From an uncultured Candidatus Saccharibacteria bacterium (lineage in GTDB: Bacteria; Patescibacteriota; Minisyncoccia; Minisyncoccales; Minisyncoccaceae): a stretch of 24,738 bases of DNA. Below are positions 384 to 24,450 of this stretch, piece by piece. Both the position numbers and the translations under genes were made by a program. The notes beneath the pieces were generated by a model, which was not told where the DNA came from, made no database searches, and was given only the letters and a program-made list of their open reading frames with translations. The DNA is taken from contig CAZDVN010000003.1 of the NCBI GenBank assembly GCA_964508955.1, positions 1 through 24,738 of the forward strand, written 5' to 3'. Positions within the stretch are counted from its first letter, which is position 1. Each line of letters starts with the position of its first letter.

Positions 384-466
384 TGGGCGAGGAGGGACTT
401 GCACCCCCGAAGGCCGAAGCCATCTGATTTACAGTCAGACCCGTTTGACTACTTTGGTACTCGCCC
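384..466 (-). tRNA. tRNA-Tyr (GTA), long variable arm
   Basis: GGGCGAG/CTCGCCC acceptor, anticodon arm TCTGA-CTGTAAA-TCAGA, variable hairpin GGCTTCGGCC, variant T-loop TGCAAGT. Confidence 0.95.
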
Positions 467-2956: not shown

Positions 2957-3386
2957 TAGTTTTTTCTTCAATTAATTCTCGATATATTGTTCCCAAAACT
3001 CCATTAACAAATTTTCTTGAATTTTCTCCTCCAAAATTCTTAGCTAGCTCAATTGATTCATTTATTGCTACTTTTGGCGGAACCTCATCTTTGTCTTCAT
3101 ACAAAAGCTCAAATATGCCTATCCTTAAAATATTTCTATCTAGTGGATTTATTTGGTTTATGGGCCATTCCGGGGCCGTTTTTTCAATGATTTGATTTAT
3201 CAGTTCGAAGTTTTCTTCTACTCCGGAGACTAGTGCCCAGATAAAATCATAACCTTCAAGTCCTTTTCCAAATTCTTCAATGTTTCTTTCAGTTATTTTA
3301 ATGAGATTTTCTTTTATTTTTCCATGAAAATCCCACTCATATAAACTTTGCATTGCTACTGATCTTGAAAGGTGCCTTGAAGCCAT
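2934..3386 (-). CDS. nusB: Transcription antitermination factor NusB
   Basis: [44 protein letters not shown]. Confidence 0.97.
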
Positions 3387-3691: not shown

Positions 3692-4302
3692 AAGGGTTTA
3701 AAGCTTTTTCTGTGTATCTCGCATTTTCCATATTTTTTAATATTTTCCATATGTTCTTTTGTCCCATATCCTTTATGTTTCTTGAAATTATATTGAGAAT
3801 ATTTTTTGTCATACAGAAGCATTATTTCATCTCTTTTTACTTTTGCAATTATACTGGCAGTACTAACTGAAAATACTTTTTTATCAGCACCAATAATTGA
3901 TTTTTGTTCAATTTCTATGTCAATTTTCATGTTTCCATCAAGAATTAAAAAATCGACCTTAATATTGTTTCTTTCTTCTAAATCTTTAATCGCCAAGTTC
4001 ATTGCTAATTTTGTTGCTTCCAGTATGTTAATCTCATCAATTATTTTCTCTGAAACAATGCCTACCCCCCATTTGAATCTTTTATCATTGATAATTTGCT
4101 CATAAACTTCTTTTCTTTTATTCTCCAGTAATAGCTTAGAATCTTTTATAAGCTTGTTTTTTCTAAGATCAAGAAAATCTTTCTCAGAAACAAAAACAGC
4201 TCCCGCAGATACTGGTCCAGCAAGAGGTCCCCTTCCTGCCTCATCAATTCCGGTAACATACTTAAAACCTTCTTTCCAAAGTTTTTCTTCTTCTTGTAAC
4301 AT
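3688..4302 (-). CDS. rnhB: Ribonuclease HII
   Basis: GIDEAGRGPLAGPV, DSK, LDG, ASIIAKVKRD, HKGYGT, HRKSF. Confidence 0.97.
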   Translation of the reverse strand: MLQEEEKLWKEGFKYVTGIDEAGRGPLAGPVSAGAVFVSEKDFLDLRKNKLIKDSKLLLENKRKEVYEQIINDKRFKWGVGIVSEKIIDEINILEATKLAMNLAIKDLEERNNIKVDFLILDGNMKIDIEIEQKSIIGADKKVFSVSTASIIAKVKRDEIMLLYDKKYSQYNFKKHKGYGTKEHMENIKKYGKCEIHRKSFKPF

Positions 4303-10047: not shown

Positions 10048-12117
10048 ATGTTAAAATATCATATTATTACTTTTGGCTGTCAGATGAATATGTCTGACTC
10101 AGAAAGAATTTCTAGTCTTTTAGAAAAAACTGGATATACCAAAGCTTCACAAGTGAAAGAGGCTGATTTAATTATCTTAAATATGTGCTCTGTGAGACAA
10201 TCAGCAGTAGATAGAGTTTATGGTCTTATTCCCCAACTAAGGAGGTCAAAAGCTAAGATTATCGCGACAGGATGCATTTTAGAAGAAGACAGGATAAAAC
10301 TAAGAGAACGTGTTGATCTTTTAATAGATAAAAAAGATATTCCAAGAATTTTTTCTAAAAACACTGCTTTTTTGAAGATAGTCCCAAATTACTCAAGTAC
10401 AATCCAAGCATTTGTTCCTATATCTGAAGGATGTAGTAATTTTTGTACTTATTGCGCAGTTCCCTACACTAGAGGAAAGTTAATTTCTAGAAATTACAAA
10501 GACATAATTAAAGAAATTAAAAGCCTGGTAAAAAATAACTTTAAAGAAATTTGGCTTTTGGGAGAAAACGTTAATGATTATATTTACAAAGGATTAGGTT
10601 TTAGTGATTTGATAAAAGAAATTGACAAAATAGAAGGAAACTTTTGGGTTAGATTTACAAGCCCAAATCCAAAAGATTTTTCTAAAAAGACGATAGAATC
10701 TTTTAGTAAAAGCTTAAAATTTGCTCCATATATAAATCTCCCTCTTCAATCAGGAGACGATTCCATCTTGAAAAAAATGAACAGGCCCTATACCGGTAAA
10801 AAATACTTGAAATTAGTAAAAGAAATTAGAGAATCTTTCAAGAAAAATAGAGAAGGACTAGAGGGAGAAATAAGTATTTCCACGGACATTATTGTTGGCT
10901 TTCCAGGAGAGACTAATTCTCAATTTATTAACACAAGAAATATTTTTTCTAAGGTTTTTTTTGAAATGGCGTATATTTCTCAATATTCCCCTCGCCCACA
11001 ATCACTTTCTTTTAAGGAAATGCCAGACGATGTTACCAAAAAAGAAAAAAAGGAAAGAGAATATATATTAAATGAGATACTTAAGAAAACAGCTTTAAAG
11101 CAAAACAAAAAATTCCTAAACAAAGAAGTTGATGTTTTAGTTTTAGAAAAAAACAATAACTATTATGATGGAAGAACTAGGCATAATAAAGCCGTAAGAT
11201 TTAAATCAGATAAAGATTTATTAGGAAAATTCGTTAAGGTAAAAGTTAATAAAGTAACTTCTTGGAACTTTGAAGGAAATCTTATCAAGCCCAAATTAGT
11301 TGTTATCTCAGGTCCAACAGCTTCAGGTAAGACTGACCTAGGAATTGCTTTGGCTACTAAATTTAATGGAGAGATTATTTCTGCTGACTCAAGGTTAATA
11401 TATAAAGGAATGGATATCGGAACTGCTAAACCAAAGAATATCAAAGGTATACCTCATCACATGATAGATATTATAGACCCTGATGAAGATTTTAATGCTG
11501 CCTTATTCAAAGAAAAAGCTATTGAAGCAATAGATTCTATAATAGAAAGAGGAAAACAGCCTTTTCTTGTAGGAGGAACTGGATTATATATAAAAGCAAT
11601 AGTTGATAATCTAAATTTTCCTAAGATTAAAACTGATCAAAAACTTAGAGAAGATTTAGAAAAAAAGAACCTTGAGGAAATATTTTTAATTTATAAAAAT
11701 ATTGACGAAGAAGGTTCAAAAATAATAGATACAAAAAATAAAAGAAGACTTATAAGAGCTATAGAAGTTTCTCTCGCCCTTAATGAAAGCTTCTTTAAGG
11801 AAAGAAAAGGAGAAGAACTATATGACGTTACTCATCTAGGTATTAAAACAAATAGCGAGGAACTTAAAAAAAGAATTGAAAAAAGGGTCAATAAGATGAT
11901 GAAAGATGGCCTAGAAAAAGAAGTAAAAAAACTATACAAGAAATATAGCCCTGAAATTCCTTCTTTAAAAACTATTGGGTATCAAGAGTGGAGAGATTAT
12001 TTTGATAAAAAAATAACTATAGAAGAGTTAAAAGAAAGAATCGTTTTAAATACTGTAAAATTTTCCAAAAGACAAATAACTTGGTTCAAGAAAGATAAAA
12101 AAATTAAGTGGATTTAG
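10048..12117 (+). CDS. miaB/miaA: MiaB-MiaA fusion: tRNA ms2i6A37 methylthiotransferase (aa 1-~411) fused to tRNA dimethylallyltransferase (aa ~412-689)
   Basis: MiaB part: TFGCQMN, NMCSVR, TGC, radical-SAM CSNFCTYC, TDIIVGFPGET, TRAM domain. MiaA part: ISGPTASGKT, SADSRLIYKGMDIGTAKP, PHH, VGGTGLY, RRLIRAIEV, IGYQE, KRQITWF. One reading frame with no stop. Confidence 0.95.
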   Translation: MLKYHIITFGCQMNMSDSERISSLLEKTGYTKASQVKEADLIILNMCSVRQSAVDRVYGLIPQLRRSKAKIIATGCILEEDRIKLRERVDLLIDKKDIPRIFSKNTAFLKIVPNYSSTIQAFVPISEGCSNFCTYCAVPYTRGKLISRNYKDIIKEIKSLVKNNFKEIWLLGENVNDYIYKGLGFSDLIKEIDKIEGNFWVRFTSPNPKDFSKKTIESFSKSLKFAPYINLPLQSGDDSILKKMNRPYTGKKYLKLVKEIRESFKKNREGLEGEISISTDIIVGFPGETNSQFINTRNIFSKVFFEMAYISQYSPRPQSLSFKEMPDDVTKKEKKEREYILNEILKKTALKQNKKFLNKEVDVLVLEKNNNYYDGRTRHNKAVRFKSDKDLLGKFVKVKVNKVTSWNFEGNLIKPKLVVISGPTASGKTDLGIALATKFNGEIISADSRLIYKGMDIGTAKPKNIKGIPHHMIDIIDPDEDFNAALFKEKAIEAIDSIIERGKQPFLVGGTGLYIKAIVDNLNFPKIKTDQKLREDLEKKNLEEIFLIYKNIDEEGSKIIDTKNKRRLIRAIEVSLALNESFFKERKGEELYDVTHLGIKTNSEELKKRIEKRVNKMMKDGLEKEVKKLYKKYSPEIPSLKTIGYQEWRDYFDKKITIEELKERIVLNTVKFSKRQITWFKKDKKIKWI

Positions 12118-20254: not shown

Positions 20255-22171
20255 TTATATGTCTAGATTCTTAACGTTTTTAGCTGAAGCTTGAATGAAT
20301 TTTTTTCTTGGAGCTACTTCTTTTCCCATTAAAGTATCAAAAGTTCTGTCGGCTTCAACTGCATCTTCAATATTAACCCTCAAAAGAAGTCTTTTTTCTG
20401 GATCCATTGTTGTTTCCCATAATTGTTCAGGATTCATTTCTCCTAAACCTTTGTATCTTTGAATACTAAATTTAGCGTTATCTTTTAAGCTTTCCAAAAA
20501 TTCTTGTTTTTGCTCTTCAGAATAAACATACTTTATTGTTTTTCCTGATTGAATCTTGTATAAAGGCGGTTGAGCTAAATATAGACAACCCTTATCTATA
20601 ATAGGTTTAAAGTGTCTAAAGAACAAAGTTATAAGAAGAGTTTTAATATGATTTCCATCTGAATCAGCATCACACATAATAATAATTCTATGATATCTTA
20701 GCTTTTCTAAATCAAAATCATCTGCAACAGCTGTTCCAAGAGCGATAATTAAATTTTTAACTTCTTCAGATGTTAACATTTTGTCTAGCCTCACTCTTTC
20801 AACGTTTAAGATTTTTCCTTTTAAGGGTAATATCGCTTGGTTTTTTCTGTTTCTTGCTTGCCTTGATGATCCTCCAGCTGACTCTCCTTCAACTATATAT
20901 AATTCTGATTCTTCTGGTTTTCTTGATGTGCAATCTGATAATTTTCCTGGCAAAGACAAACCATCTAAAACGCCCTTTCTTAAGATGGTTTCCTTTGCAG
21001 CCCTAGCAGCTTTTCTTGCTTTATATGATAAAACTGCCTTTTCAATAATAATTTTTGTATCTTGAGGATACCTTTCTAGGTAATCTTGAAGGGCTTCTGA
21101 GACTACTGCTTCTACTGCTGTTCTTGCTTCAGTGTTTCCTAATTTACCTTTAGTTTGTCCTTCAAATTGAGGGTCTTTTATCTTTACCGAAACAACGGCT
21201 GTTAATCCTTCTCTAATGTCATCTCCTGTTAAGTTAGGCTCTGCTTCTTTGATAAAGCCTCCTTTTCTTCCAAAATCATTAACTAACCTTGTTAGTGCTG
21301 TTCTAAATCCTGTTAAATGAGTTCCTCCCTCTATGGTAAAAATATTGTTTGTAAAACTGTCTTCTTTTATTTCGTAGTCATCAGAGTATTGAAAAGATGC
21401 CTCAACGCTAACTCCTTCTTTTTCTCCAGAACAATAAAAAGGATTATTATGAATAGTTTTTGTTTCTTTGTTCAAATATTTTAGATAAGAAACTATTCCC
21501 CCCTCAAAGAAAAAATGATACTCAAAGGGTTCTTCTGGATTTCTTTGGTCATAAAAATCTATCCTTATTCCCTTTGTTAAATATGCTTGTTGACGAAAAT
21601 GTGAAAGAAGTTTTTTTCTGTCAAAGAAAATTTCTTTAAATATTTCTGGATCAGGCTCAAAAATAATAGTTGTTCCTCCTTGTTTACATTCACCTATTTT
21701 CTTAACTGGACAAACTGGCTTTCCTTGTTTATATTCCTGAGCATATATTTTTTTATCTTTACAAACCTCAACTCTCATATTCTTGGAAAGAGCACAAACA
21801 ACTGAAACCCCTACACCATGAAGACCTCCTGATATTTTATAAGCATCTCCACCAAACTTACCACCTGCATGCAAAGTGGTCATAATTGTTTCTAGGGCAG
21901 ATTTCTTAGTTTTCTCATGGATGTCAACAGGGATACCTCTTCCATTATCAACGACTTTAACTTGATTGCCAGGCAGAAGATATACTTCTATTTTATCACA
22001 AAAACCACCCAAAGCTTCATCTAGGGAATTATCAACTACTTCGTAGACTAAATGATGTAAGCCTTGTGGACCAGTTGATCCAATGTACATACCAGGTCTT
22101 TTTCTAACTGGATCTAGACCCTCTAAAACGAAAATGTCTTTTGCACTATATGAACTATTTTCTTTTTTCAT
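20255..22171 (-). CDS. gyrB: DNA gyrase subunit B
   Basis: VRKRPGMYIG, EVVDNSLDE, DNGRGIP, GGLHGVG, PGKLSDC, LPLKGKILNV, DADSDG, QRYKGLGEMN, C-terminal NVKNLDI. ParE is not fully excluded without a tree. Confidence 0.93.
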   Translation of the reverse strand: MKKENSSYSAKDIFVLEGLDPVRKRPGMYIGSTGPQGLHHLVYEVVDNSLDEALGGFCDKIEVYLLPGNQVKVVDNGRGIPVDIHEKTKKSALETIMTTLHAGGKFGGDAYKISGGLHGVGVSVVCALSKNMRVEVCKDKKIYAQEYKQGKPVCPVKKIGECKQGGTTIIFEPDPEIFKEIFFDRKKLLSHFRQQAYLTKGIRIDFYDQRNPEEPFEYHFFFEGGIVSYLKYLNKETKTIHNNPFYCSGEKEGVSVEASFQYSDDYEIKEDSFTNNIFTIEGGTHLTGFRTALTRLVNDFGRKGGFIKEAEPNLTGDDIREGLTAVVSVKIKDPQFEGQTKGKLGNTEARTAVEAVVSEALQDYLERYPQDTKIIIEKAVLSYKARKAARAAKETILRKGVLDGLSLPGKLSDCTSRKPEESELYIVEGESAGGSSRQARNRKNQAILPLKGKILNVERVRLDKMLTSEEVKNLIIALGTAVADDFDLEKLRYHRIIIMCDADSDGNHIKTLLITLFFRHFKPIIDKGCLYLAQPPLYKIQSGKTIKYVYSEEQKQEFLESLKDNAKFSIQRYKGLGEMNPEQLWETTMDPEKRLLLRVNIEDAVEADRTFDTLMGKEVAPRKKFIQASAKNVKNLDI

Positions 22172-22199
22172 AACTGAAAATCTTTTATTTATATAAGTA

Positions 22200-22228
22200 A
22201 TTTTACTCTAAAAACAACAGAAAAGCAA
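22200..22228 (-). promoter_or_regulatory. Putative promoter for gyrB
   Basis: TTGCTT (22223-22228), 17 nt, TAAAAT (22200-22205). Confidence 0.5.
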
Positions 22229-22259
22229 ATAAAAAAAGGCGTACTTTTGAGCCAATATG

Positions 22260-22333
22260 CGGACCCGACCGGACTCGAACCGGCAGTCTCCTCCGTGACA
22301 GGGAGGCGCGATAACCAATTTCGCTACGGATCC
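22260..22333 (-). tRNA. tRNA-Asp (GTC)
   Basis: GGATCCG/CGGGTCC acceptor, G73, anticodon arm CCTCC-CTGTCAC-GGAGG, T-loop TTCGAGT. Confidence 0.96.
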
Positions 22334-22339
22334 ATAATG

Positions 22340-22411
22340 TGCCAAAGATGGGAATCGAACCCATGACAACTCGCTTATGAAACGAGCGCTCTACCACTGA
22401 GCTACTCTGGC
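22340..22411 (-). tRNA. tRNA with CAT anticodon, non-initiator (elongator Met or Ile2)
   Basis: GCCAGAG/CTTTGGC fully paired acceptor, anticodon arm CTCGT-TTCATAA-GCGAG, T-loop TTCGATT. Confidence 0.9.
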
Positions 22412-22430
22412 GCCACATTATGAAAAAATG

Positions 22431-22501
22431 TTGCGGTTCCTGGAATTGCACCAGGGTCTCCAGCTTATGAGACTGGCGAGGTACTACTCCTCCAAACCGC
22501 T
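22431..22501 (-). tRNA. tRNA-Met (CAT), initiator-like but atypical
   Basis: AGCGGTT/AACCGCA acceptor with A1xA72 mismatch, A11:U24 pair, anticodon arm CCAGT-CTCATAA-GCTGG, T-loop TGCAATT. Confidence 0.88.
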
Positions 22502-22511
22502 ATATAAAACT

Positions 22512-22539
22512 ATTCTATCAAAAAATGAAATAAAATCAA
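22512..22539 (-). promoter_or_regulatory. Putative promoter for the tRNA(CAT)-tRNA(CAT)-tRNA-Asp cluster
   Basis: TTGATT (22534-22539), 16 nt, TGa-TAGAAT (22512-22517), 10 nt upstream of the first tRNA. Confidence 0.6.
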
Positions 22540-23039
22540 GTTATAATTTTTAATCTTCTCAACGCTTCTTCACATGAATCAAAAAACTTTTGAAGTTCTT
22601 CTATGTTGGCAACATAATTATGATTTGTTCTGGCTTCTTCTGAAAGGAGAGAAATCTTTTTTATTCCTTCTATGTCTGAAATGGGAGAATTACTAATCAT
22701 CTCCAAAATATCATCTCCTTTAATTTCTAAATTATTTAAAATATCTAAAAATAATTCCTCCATCATTATTATAGCCCTTCTATAATCTTTTTTATCTAAA
22801 AAAGAAGAAATTGATTTAGATCTTTTAGTAAAAGATTTTTCTTCTTTAACCTTGTTGGGATCTAAGAAATTACCAAGTCTTTCTTTGGAGTCTTTAATTA
22901 AAAATCCTGCCTTAACAATATAATAAAAAATAGCAAACAAAAAGAAAAGAGTTACTATTATAAACAAAAGCTTGAAAGGAAAAAGAAAGCTATAGAGCTC
23001 ACTTGATTCTAAAAAAGTTAAAACATTATTTGGCATCAT
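22536..23039 (-). CDS. Hypothetical single-pass membrane protein with a helical C-terminal domain
   Basis: Hydrophobic stretch FLFPFKLLFIIVTLFFLFAIFYYIV followed by a charged helical region. ATG at 23039/23036 overlaps the gatA stop; the ORF-track start at 23051 is a TTG. Confidence 0.7.
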   Translation of the reverse strand: MMPNNVLTFLESSELYSFLFPFKLLFIIVTLFFLFAIFYYIVKAGFLIKDSKERLGNFLDPNKVKEEKSFTKRSKSISSFLDKKDYRRAIIMMEELFLDILNNLEIKGDDILEMISNSPISDIEGIKKISLLSEEARTNHNYVANIEELQKFFDSCEEALRRLKIIT

Positions 23040-24450
23040 GATTTTTTTCAAATAGAAGAGCTGCGCTAATCAATTCTTTTTCTTTGAAAGGTTTCCCTAT
23101 TATTTGTAATCCTATAGGAAGGTTGCTAGAAGATTTTCCACAAGGCAAGGAAATTGCTGGTAATCCTGCTAAGTTTACAGAAACAGTATATATATCAGAT
23201 AAATAAGTAAACATTGGATTTTCTAATTTCTCTCCTATTTTATAAGGCAAGCATGGCGATGTGGGACCTATAATTACATCGGCCTTTTTAAAAGCCTCTT
23301 CAAAATCTTTTGCAATCAATGTTCTTACCTTCAGTGCCCTTTTGTAAAAAGCATCATAGTAACCCGAAGAAAGAACATAGGTTCCAAGCATGATTCTTTT
23401 TTTAACTTCTTCTCCAAAAAAGGTTGTTCGATTCTTTGCATAAAATTCTATTCCATCACTATTATCTGAACTTTCTCCATACCTTAATCCATCAAATCTA
23501 GCTAAATTAGCGCTAGCCTCAGCAGAAGTAATAATATAGTAACAAGCTAAAGCATATTCAGTGTGAGGCAAACTAATTTCCACTATCTCTGAATCAATAT
23601 TCTTATATAGCTCAATTGATTTTTCAATAGCATCTTTAACCTCGCTATCTAATCCTTCTATAAAATATTCTTTAGGAACTCCTATCCTAATCTTTTGATT
23701 AACTTCTTGCTTTTCTTCATAGTCAATGGTAGTGGAGTCTTTTTCGTCTAAGCCTTTAATGGATTCAAAAACTATTTGAGAATCAGAAACATTTTTTGTT
23801 ATTGGACCAATTTGATCTAATGATGAAGCAAAAGCAATAGCTCCATTCCTTGAAACTGATCCATAAGTAGGCTTTAAGCCCACTACACCACAAAATGAAG
23901 AAGGCTGTCTAATAGAACCCCCTGTATCAGTTCCTAAGGCATAAACACACATATCTGCAGAAACAGCAGCAGCTGAACCACCAGAAGAGCCACCAGGGAC
24001 TCTTTCAATATCATGAGGATTTTTAGTTGGAAAGAATGCAGATTTTTCACAAGAAGATCCCATCGCAAATTCATCTAAATTTGTTTTTCCTAGAAATACC
24101 GCACCCAAATCCTCTAATTTTTTAATTACAGTTGCATTGTATGGTGCAACATAGTTTTCTAAAAATTTTGAAGCGGCAGTACACTTAATATTTTCAATTA
24201 AAATATTATCTTTGACAGCACAAGGAATACCAGTTAATAAATGGGCCTTGCCGCTTTTAATCATCTCATCTGCTTTTTTTGCTTGATCAAGGGCTAAATC
24301 TTTATTTACAGTAATGTAAGCATTAATTGTCTTATCTTTATCCTCAATCAAATCTAAAAATGCTTTTGTTAATTCAACAGAAGTATATTCACCATTTTTT
24401 AAACATTCGTGGGCTTTTTCTATTGTTAAGTTTTCTAAATTAATCTTCAT
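23026..24450 (-). CDS. gatA: Asp/Glu-tRNA amidotransferase subunit A
   Basis: VKDNI, GKTNLDEFAMGSS, GGSSGGSAAAV, GTDTGGSIRQP, KPTYG, ANLARFDG, RIMLGT. Confidence 0.98.
   Translation of the reverse strand: MKINLENLTIEKAHECLKNGEYTSVELTKAFLDLIEDKDKTINAYITVNKDLALDQAKKADEMIKSGKAHLLTGIPCAVKDNILIENIKCTAASKFLENYVAPYNATVIKKLEDLGAVFLGKTNLDEFAMGSSCEKSAFFPTKNPHDIERVPGGSSGGSAAAVSADMCVYALGTDTGGSIRQPSSFCGVVGLKPTYGSVSRNGAIAFASSLDQIGPITKNVSDSQIVFESIKGLDEKDSTTIDYEEKQEVNQKIRIGVPKEYFIEGLDSEVKDAIEKSIELYKNIDSEIVEISLPHTEYALACYYIITSAEASANLARFDGLRYGESSDNSDGIEFYAKNRTTFFGEEVKKRIMLGTYVLSSGYYDAFYKRALKVRTLIAKDFEEAFKKADVIIGPTSPCLPYKIGEKLENPMFTYLSDIYTVSVNLAGLPAISLPCGKSSSNLPIGLQIIGKPFKEKELISAALLFEKNHDAK

Follow-up and report, generated by a model that had tools for sequence, protein, structure and literature searches.

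The tRNA(CAU) gene at positions 22431–22501 on the minus strand of the window, by which we mean the whole 24 738 nt stretch of DNA analysed here, is by its sequence a bacterial initiator-type tRNA, and we put at about 80% the probability that it serves as the working initiator (tRNAfMet type) in an uncultured Parcubacteria/Paceibacteria (CPR) bacterium and is a member of a lineage-wide family. This reading stems from compensatory evolution within the family, in which the G30-C40 pair never changes, and from the position of the gene at the head of a conserved cluster with a promoter-like site of its own. Three consecutive G-C pairs in the anticodon stem count among the textbook features by which initiator tRNAs are recognised in every domain; the gene in the window carries only the middle one.

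An initiator-type tRNA with a variant anticodon stem

ARAGORN predicted six tRNA genes across the window, among them a tRNA-Met(cat) at 22430–22501(−), and the Rfam model RF00005 matched 22501–22431(−) with 53.6 bits (E = 4e-9), the 1:72 position being the sole non-standard pair. The 71 nt gene has no encoded CCA. Its RNA reads AGCGGUU UG GAGG AGUAGUA CCUC G CCAGU CUCAUAA in the 5′ half and continues after the anticodon loop with GCUGG AGAC CCUGG UGCAAUU CCAGG AACCGCA A. Single-sequence minimum-energy folding of this RNA did not yield a cloverleaf.

The gene had been proposed as initiator-like on the strength of an A1xA72 mismatch and an A11:U24 pair, and both hallmarks can be read directly from the sequence (22501/22432 and 22491/22479, respectively). 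An unpaired 1:72 position is a formylation determinant and an EF-Tu anti-determinant, and elongator tRNAs carry Y11:R24. Also present are G2-C71 and C3-G70, which are Fmt determinants in Escherichia coli, together with A73 and the CAU anticodon in a 7 nt loop with C32 and A38 (CUCAUAA); in the family members described below, this loop and A11:U24 were fixed by the search pattern. None of the features of an elongator Met or Ile2(CAU) tRNA (paired 1:72, Y11:R24, D-stem GCUC/GAGC) was present. The initiator-like identity is borne out by these marks and by an identity of 67.6% to metZ (initiator), as compared with 47.9% to metT (elongator Met) and 54.9% to ileX (Ile2), the references being annotated E. 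coli genes taken by coordinates. BLAST searches of both CAU tRNAs of the window against E. coli genomes returned either no match or an irrelevant tRNA-Thr.

With the E. coli tRNAfMet genes (metZ/W/V, metY) the window tRNA shares the CAU anticodon and its CUCAUAA loop (C32, A38), the unpaired 1:72 position, G30-C40, A72 and A73, the pairs G2-C71, C3-G70, G4-C69 and G5-C68, as well as U8 G9 G10 A11 G12 and C23 U24 C25 G26; with metZ the likeness covers the G2–G5 acceptor pairs, UGGAG (8–12), CUCG (23–26), the anticodon loop and the CCGCAA 3′ end. It differs from the E. coli tRNAfMet in having A1 instead of C1, A29-U41 and U31.G39 instead of G-C pairs, no encoded CCA, a 7 nt D-loop with A18, the T-loop UGCAAUU (G55) instead of UUCAAAU, and a 4 nt variable loop.

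In the anticodon arm (22460–22476, minus strand), positions 27–31 correspond to 22476–22472, the CUCAUAA loop to 22471–22465 and positions 39–43 to 22464–22460. The outer pairs C27-G43 and C28-G42 are followed by A29-U41 (22474/22462), G30-C40 (22473/22463) and U31.G39 (22472/22464), exactly as the original prediction had described them in place of GGG/CCC, and a G-C pair is found at 30:40 only. As natural exceptions to the three G-C pairs are already known (PMC5389676), we treated this feature as typical of initiators rather than defining. The exceptions described, namely au/GC/GC, GC/GC/gu and au/GC/gu (pairs 29:41/30:40/31:39), all keep a purine at 29–31 and a pyrimidine at 39–41 (PMC5389676), a regularity that is broken in the window tRNA (au/GC/ug) by the pyrimidine:purine pair at 31:39. 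Its characterization as an extreme variant thus holds in so far as au/GC/ug lies outside the natural variants described (PMC5389676), but not in the sense of a lineage-private oddity, since au/GC/ug appears as the norm in a broad Parcubacteria family and recurs in a more distant CPR genome (L006), and since U31.G39 occurs in ∼9% of the listed viral initiator-like tRNAs. A 2026 survey found 4 bp anticodon stems in only 0.2% of bacterial tRNAfMet (PMC13092985), a rarity that underlines the constraint on the initiator anticodon stem. A literature search on U31/G39 initiators and on CPR/Parcubacteria initiator tRNAs found nothing on point.

In E. coli, G30 (with C40 or U40) is the crucial and necessary element of the stem, and mutants with 1st AU, 3rd AU, 3rd GU, au/GC/gu or cg/GC/cg stems sustain the cell at some growth costs, with poor growth of the au/GC/gu and cg/GC/cg mutants under some conditions (PMC5389676). 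The contacts of the 16S rRNA nucleotides A1339 and G1338 are with pairs 1 and 2 of the stem and not with pair 3 (PMC5389676). With these engineered mutants (Shetty et al. 2016/17) the CPR stem has in common a necessary G30 and tolerated changes of pairs 1 and 3; it differs in that au/GC/ug is not among the mutants described, au/GC/gu and cg/GC/cg coming nearest to it, and in that a variant fixed by evolution stands against laboratory mutants with fitness costs. With the natural variants of mycoplasmas and alpha-proteobacteria (PMC5389676) it shares the A-U first pair, the retained G30-C40 and a third pair weakened to a wobble, but its host clade is CPR and some members of its family also have U29-A41.

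A promoter-like site, TTGATT-16 nt-(TG)TAGAAT (22512–22539, minus strand), which was detected by consensus scan and is putative in function, ends 10 nt upstream of the tRNA 5′ end. The open reading frame at 22203–22451 (82 aa, GTG start, minus strand) overlaps tRNA genes and was rejected as spurious.

Three independent assemblies (ENA ERZ27298487, JGI 3300039154 and JGI 3300039165) were identical over 389 bp around the tRNAs, and Logan contigs of four runs from four studies showed no other letter anywhere in 22431–22501, including positions 22462–22476, for which the original prediction had allowed for a correction by reads. A search for RNA runs with the locus found none. In landfill metagenomes the depth over the tRNA was ∼15 times that of its flanks, indicating that many genomes share the exact tRNA sequence. 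Among contigs at least 80% alike, U31/G39 accounted for ∼97% by depth and G31 with C39 for only ∼2.5%; in this minor variant, G31 and C39 occur jointly on the same contigs, but as the listed changes at 28 and 43 leave the stem not fully paired, we do not count the double change as a demonstrated case of compensation.

A family of CPR tRNAs in a conserved gene cluster

The window has a low GC content (∼31%) and carries a run of bacterial housekeeping genes. GyrB relatives at 77–91% identity were named Candidatus Paceibacterota, Pacebacteria or Parcubacteria by their sources, and the nearest GTDB species representatives by GyrB, among the matches listed, were Nealsonbacteria (70%) and Staskawiczbacteria (64%), which places the organism in the Parcubacteria (Paceibacteria) group of the CPR/Patescibacteria. 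Just upstream of gyrB (20255–22171) three tRNAs form a tight cluster on the minus strand, in which the initiator-type gene is followed by an elongator-type tRNA(CAU) at 22340–22411 (ARAGORN 22339–22411; Rfam 72.2 bits) and, directly upstream of gyrB, by tRNA-Asp(GUC) at 22260–22333 (ARAGORN 22259–22333; Rfam).

The second tRNA of the cluster has the D-stem GCUC/GAGC and is assigned to the elongators because of its G1-C72 and C11:G24 pairs and its canonical elbow. Its identity to the E. coli references (metT 66.7%, ileX 61.1%, metZ 54.2%) leans weakly towards elongator Met, which it probably is, rather than Ile2 (lysidine). The remark of the original prediction that this neighbouring CAT tRNA also has U31.G39 proved accurate (stem CUCGU/GCGAG). 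In every lineage among ∼30 related loci, the elongator-type CAU tRNA next to the initiator has a weak or mismatched 31:39 pair (U.G, AxC or AxA), and the G5.U68 wobble of its acceptor stem is conserved there and in the window.

Relatives were picked through neighbouring proteins and not through the tRNA, and are thus unbiased as to tRNA sequence. Most of the GyrB-anchored relatives have pheS-pheT upstream of gyrB, and only L006, L315 and L319 were informative for the tRNA cluster. The initiator tRNA of L315 (GyrB 87%) is identical to that of the window, and that of L319 (GyrB 80%) differs by one base, A9. In the more distant L006 (GyrB 58%) the same three-tRNA cluster was found, with an au/GC/ug initiator that has C1xA72 and a canonical elbow. 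Three of the four LepA-anchored relatives had no tRNA within 3 kb after lepA; the one present in the fourth, a Staskawiczbacteria-like contig (L446), differs in its acceptor stem (CGGGCCG) and T-stem and has the same au/GC/ug stem and A18/G55. Another Patescibacteria genome (L015) has an initiator-like tRNA with au/GC/GC, so that au/GC/ug is not CPR-wide. This L015 tRNA (MAG JBAXYM01) has C33 in the loop CCCAUAA, U33 being near-universal in tRNAs, and at the same locus ARAGORN predicts a tRNA with the four-base anticodon cttg; the positions concerned are 3285–3361(−) and 3803–3878(−).

A metagenome scan for initiator-like tRNAs, in which U31 and G39 were fixed and positions 27–30 and 40–43 were left free, gave at least 120 matches. 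Among those listed, at least 38 loci (30 distinct sequences) were of the window's type, defined by a 7 nt D-loop A[AG]UAG[UA]A and the T-loop UGCAA[AU]U. The uniformity of this family at 31:39 is partly imposed by the pattern and rests on L315, L319, L446 and L006 and on read depth. G30-C40, in contrast, was present in all 38 listed members though the pattern had left 30:40 free. Position 29:41 was A-U in 30, G-C in six and U-A in two of the 38 matches listed, and position 1:72 was CxA in 20, AxA in 11, U.G in four, U-A in two and UxU in one of them, but never G-C or C-G. No CCA was encoded in 37 of the 38, and the locus GC of the listed matches ranged from 0.31 to 0.46. Six other matches of the scan (L346, L362, L379, L395, L410 and L415), two of them labelled human-gut assemblies, consist of one shared non-tRNA sequence (GAGTATC TGGAG … TATGT CTCATAA GCTGC) in which ARAGORN finds no tRNA, and are thus regarded as chance matches, probably to a coding region.

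An alignment of 28 distinct 71 nt members was examined for covariation. All 560 stem cells were paired (560/560), compensatory double changes were found in 13 of the 20 pairs, and the covariation score was 0.529 as against 0.137 for shuffled alignments and at most 0.129 for slid registers. RNAalifold independently recovered the same cloverleaf from the family alignment and left 1:72 unpaired. G2-C71 and A73 occur in all 28 of these relatives and C3-G70 in 21 (G3-C70 in six).

The cluster of initiator, elongator-CAU and Asp tRNAs was found in at least 29 of the 38 family loci, the others ending at contig ends, and almost all family clusters have a promoter-like TTG-N16/17-TGnTAnAAT motif ahead of them. 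Two synteny groups could be distinguished. In the first, which includes the window, the order is gatC-gatA-ORF171-cluster and GatA is 51–72% identical to that of the window; one of these loci (L397) has a tRNA identical to the window's although its GatA is only 72% identical. In the second the order is murJ-lepA-cluster, and the LepA relatives are named Staskawiczbacteria. To judge from these sequences, the au/GC/ug stem is a conserved norm in a Parcubacteria clade that comprises at least two lineages (Pacebacteria-like and Staskawiczbacteria).

Further observations concern the neighbourhood. ORF171 (22536–23051, minus strand; 171 aa) overlaps the end of gatA and had no Pfam match; in nine loci of the same synteny group a conserved counterpart with 24–56% identity separates gatA from the tRNA cluster. 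In most relatives with a GyrB 77–87% identical (L315–L318 and L320, compared with window positions 20255–22600) pheS-pheT adjoins gyrB on its upstream side, where the window's species has the gatCA-ORF171-tRNA block, which points to a recent rearrangement at the gyrB junction. At 10048–12117 (plus strand) a single 689 aa open reading frame represents a fusion of MiaB (UPF0004, radical SAM, TRAM) to MiaA (IPP transferase), the two enzymes that make ms2i6A37 in tRNAs, and a 675 aa relative is found in JGI data.

The A18/G55 elbow and initiator-like tRNAs of phages

A second unusual feature of the window tRNA, absent from the original prediction, lies in its elbow (22449–22485, minus strand). The D-loop AGUAGUA has A at the G18 position (22485) and keeps G19, and the T-loop UGCAAUU has G at the U55 position (22449) and keeps C56. 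A18/G55 is present in all 38 listed family members by virtue of the selection criteria used. A complete scan of IMG/VR for the AGUAGUA D-loop gave 71 tRNAs, 70 of which had a G55 T-loop, and A18/G55 thus reads as a clean covariation. In these 71 tRNAs, 31:39 was G-C in 62% and U.G in 18%, position 13 was A, C or U but never G, and the variable loops were mostly of 5 nt; the CPR type was not found among them. The tRNA-Tyr of the window (384–466, minus strand) likewise combines A18 (D-loop AGUAGUCAA) with G55 (T-loop UGCAAGU), and the tRNA-Tyr of two other CPR genomes (L008:1805–1889 and L012:6526–6610) has AGCGGUCAA with UUCGAAU; the elbow covariation extends beyond the initiator tRNA. A literature search on the A18/G55 elbow found nothing on point.

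The U31/G39 pattern gave at least 120 matches in IMG/VR, most of them in multi-tRNA arrays, many of which comprised 5 to 38 tRNAs, and G30-C40 was kept in 116 of the 120 matches listed. When IMG/VR was rescanned by the same pattern with the anticodon stem left free, at least 120 stretches were obtained, and among the matches listed GC/GC/GC was found in 24 (∼20%), au/GC/GC in 38 (32%), ua/GC/GC in 22 (18%) and U31.G39 in ∼11 (9%), with G30-C40 in any context in ∼95%. The share of ∼20% with three G-C pairs among the listed viral matches (L084–L312) indicates that phage initiator-like tRNAs depart from this feature far more often than is reported for bacteria. An anticodon arm identical to that of the window (CCAGU-CUCAUAA-GCUGG) occurs in the tRNA-Met of T5-like Klebsiella phages (e.g. 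Sugarland) and of Aeromonas phage Aes012, although the Sugarland tRNA, with its U1-A72 pair and U73, may not be an initiator. Related tRNAs, those with the closest similarity to one xx/GC/ug type, were found in records of Lak and crAss-like phages. The phage initiator-like tRNAs share with the CPR family the frequent loss of G-C at 29:41 and 31:39, the retained G30-C40 and the A18/G55 covariation; they differ from the CPR type in that they mostly encode CCA, have 5 nt variable loops and lie in large tRNA arrays.

The U31.G39 variant is conserved across a clade, breaks the purine:pyrimidine regularity of the known exceptions and is linked to an elbow change, and the classical rule of three G-C pairs reduces in nature to the middle pair, G30-C40.

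Alternative explanations and proposed function

An explanation compatible with initiator identity is that the variant works only through a co-evolved P-site machinery (IF3, 16S rRNA positions 1338/1339 and their neighbourhood, the uS9 tail and uS13), as the original prediction had suggested for this lineage; we regard this as possible but tentative. Precedent comes from Sinorhizobium, whose ribosomes load its natural 1st-AU initiator into 70S as well as those of E. coli load the wild type, whereas E. coli ribosomes handle the 1st-AU variant less well (PMC5389676), and the growth defects of the au/GC/gu and cg/GC/cg mutants in E. coli point in the same direction (PMC5389676). The elbow is altered too, A18/G55 and the variant stem both being fixed across the family, and the N-terminal domain of IF3 contacts the initiator elbow (PMC9723500), which makes a co-evolution of IF3 or 16S rRNA more plausible. 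On the other hand, no IF3, 16S rRNA, uS9 or uS13 gene lies inside the window. Moreover, co-evolution is not required, because the variant retains G30-C40, which alone of the three pairs is essential in E. coli, and because G1338/A1339 touch the first two pairs and leave the altered third one uncontacted (PMC5389676). Initiator-like tRNAs of the xx/GC/ug type in many phage arrays also weigh against it, as does the identical arm in the T5-like Klebsiella phages, whose hosts have standard ribosomes, the initiator role of the tRNA being putative there.

It is improbable, in our estimate, that the gene is an accessory initiator-like copy and that a canonical tRNA with three G-C pairs elsewhere in the genome is the main initiator. 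Some bacteria do have several initiator genes, and the window together with L001 covers only ∼45 kb of genome. However, no second CAU initiator was found in any of ∼45 family loci or elsewhere in these ∼45 kb, the gene belongs to a conserved chromosomal cluster beside housekeeping genes in both synteny groups, and strong purifying selection with compensatory change is what one would expect of a sole essential tRNA. CPR genomes are, furthermore, small and usually carry single tRNA copies, which counts against an accessory role.

A still more remote explanation, and a very unlikely one, is that the tRNA was acquired horizontally from a phage and is not the host's own initiator. Initiator-like tRNAs with U31.G39 and A18/G55 are indeed common on viral contigs of IMG/VR, many of them in arrays, but the CPR type, with its D-stem GAGG/CCUC or GAGA/UCUC, 4 nt variable loop and lack of CCA, was not among the 71 IMG/VR tRNAs. 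In addition, the gene is flanked by gatCA or murJ-lepA on one side and by further core genes on the other, its vicinity is free of phage genes, and the divergence of the tRNA tracks that of the neighbouring proteins. An assembly error or a decaying pseudogene, for which nothing but the unusual stem would speak, is refuted by the three identical assemblies, the contigs of four studies and the fully paired stems of 28 distinct relatives, and the promoter-like motif conserved upstream argues against it as well.

As the working initiator of its host, the tRNA would be transcribed together with the two downstream tRNAs and then processed, and CCA would be added after transcription, since none is encoded. 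Charging by MetRS would proceed via CAU and A73, and acceptance by the formyltransferase via the unpaired 1:72 position together with G2-C71, C3-G70 and A11:U24. On entry into the 30S P site, 29:41 and 30:40 would be recognised through their minor groove by G1338 and A1339 of the 16S rRNA. Of the three classical G-C pairs only the middle one would be needed and kept, pair 1 being A-U as in alpha-proteobacteria and some mycoplasmas and pair 3 being a flipped U.G that presumably lies beyond the 16S contact. P-site acceptance would thus rest on G30-C40, aided by purine 29 in most members, and a reliance on this pair agrees with E. coli genetics, where G30 is essential (PMC5389676). A18/G55 in the elbow is a further covarying change, likewise fixed in this family.

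A broader proposal, which we consider rather doubtful at present, is that a large class of CPR bacteria, including at least the Pacebacteria-like and Staskawiczbacteria lineages, initiates on a tRNA with only one of the three classical G-C pairs, an inverted pair 3 and an elbow remodelled from G18/Psi55 to A18/G55. In that case the IF3/16S checkpoint of the P site would be re-tuned in these bacteria, or the discrimination between initiator and elongator tRNAs relaxed, and many phages would have arrived at the same solution on their own or by exchange.

Where annotation pipelines depend on GGG/CCC, such genes may be mislabelled as elongator tRNA-Met. The retention of G30-C40 alone in a CPR clade and in many phage tRNA sets lends natural support to G30 as the essential element of the initiator anticodon stem. 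Since the elbow and the region of the anticodon stem are both in contact with IF3, the A18/G55 change linked to the stem gives rise to a specific and testable hypothesis of co-evolution, and the CPR tRNA with its cognate IF3 and 16S rRNA offers ready material for studying how the P-site checkpoint adapts.
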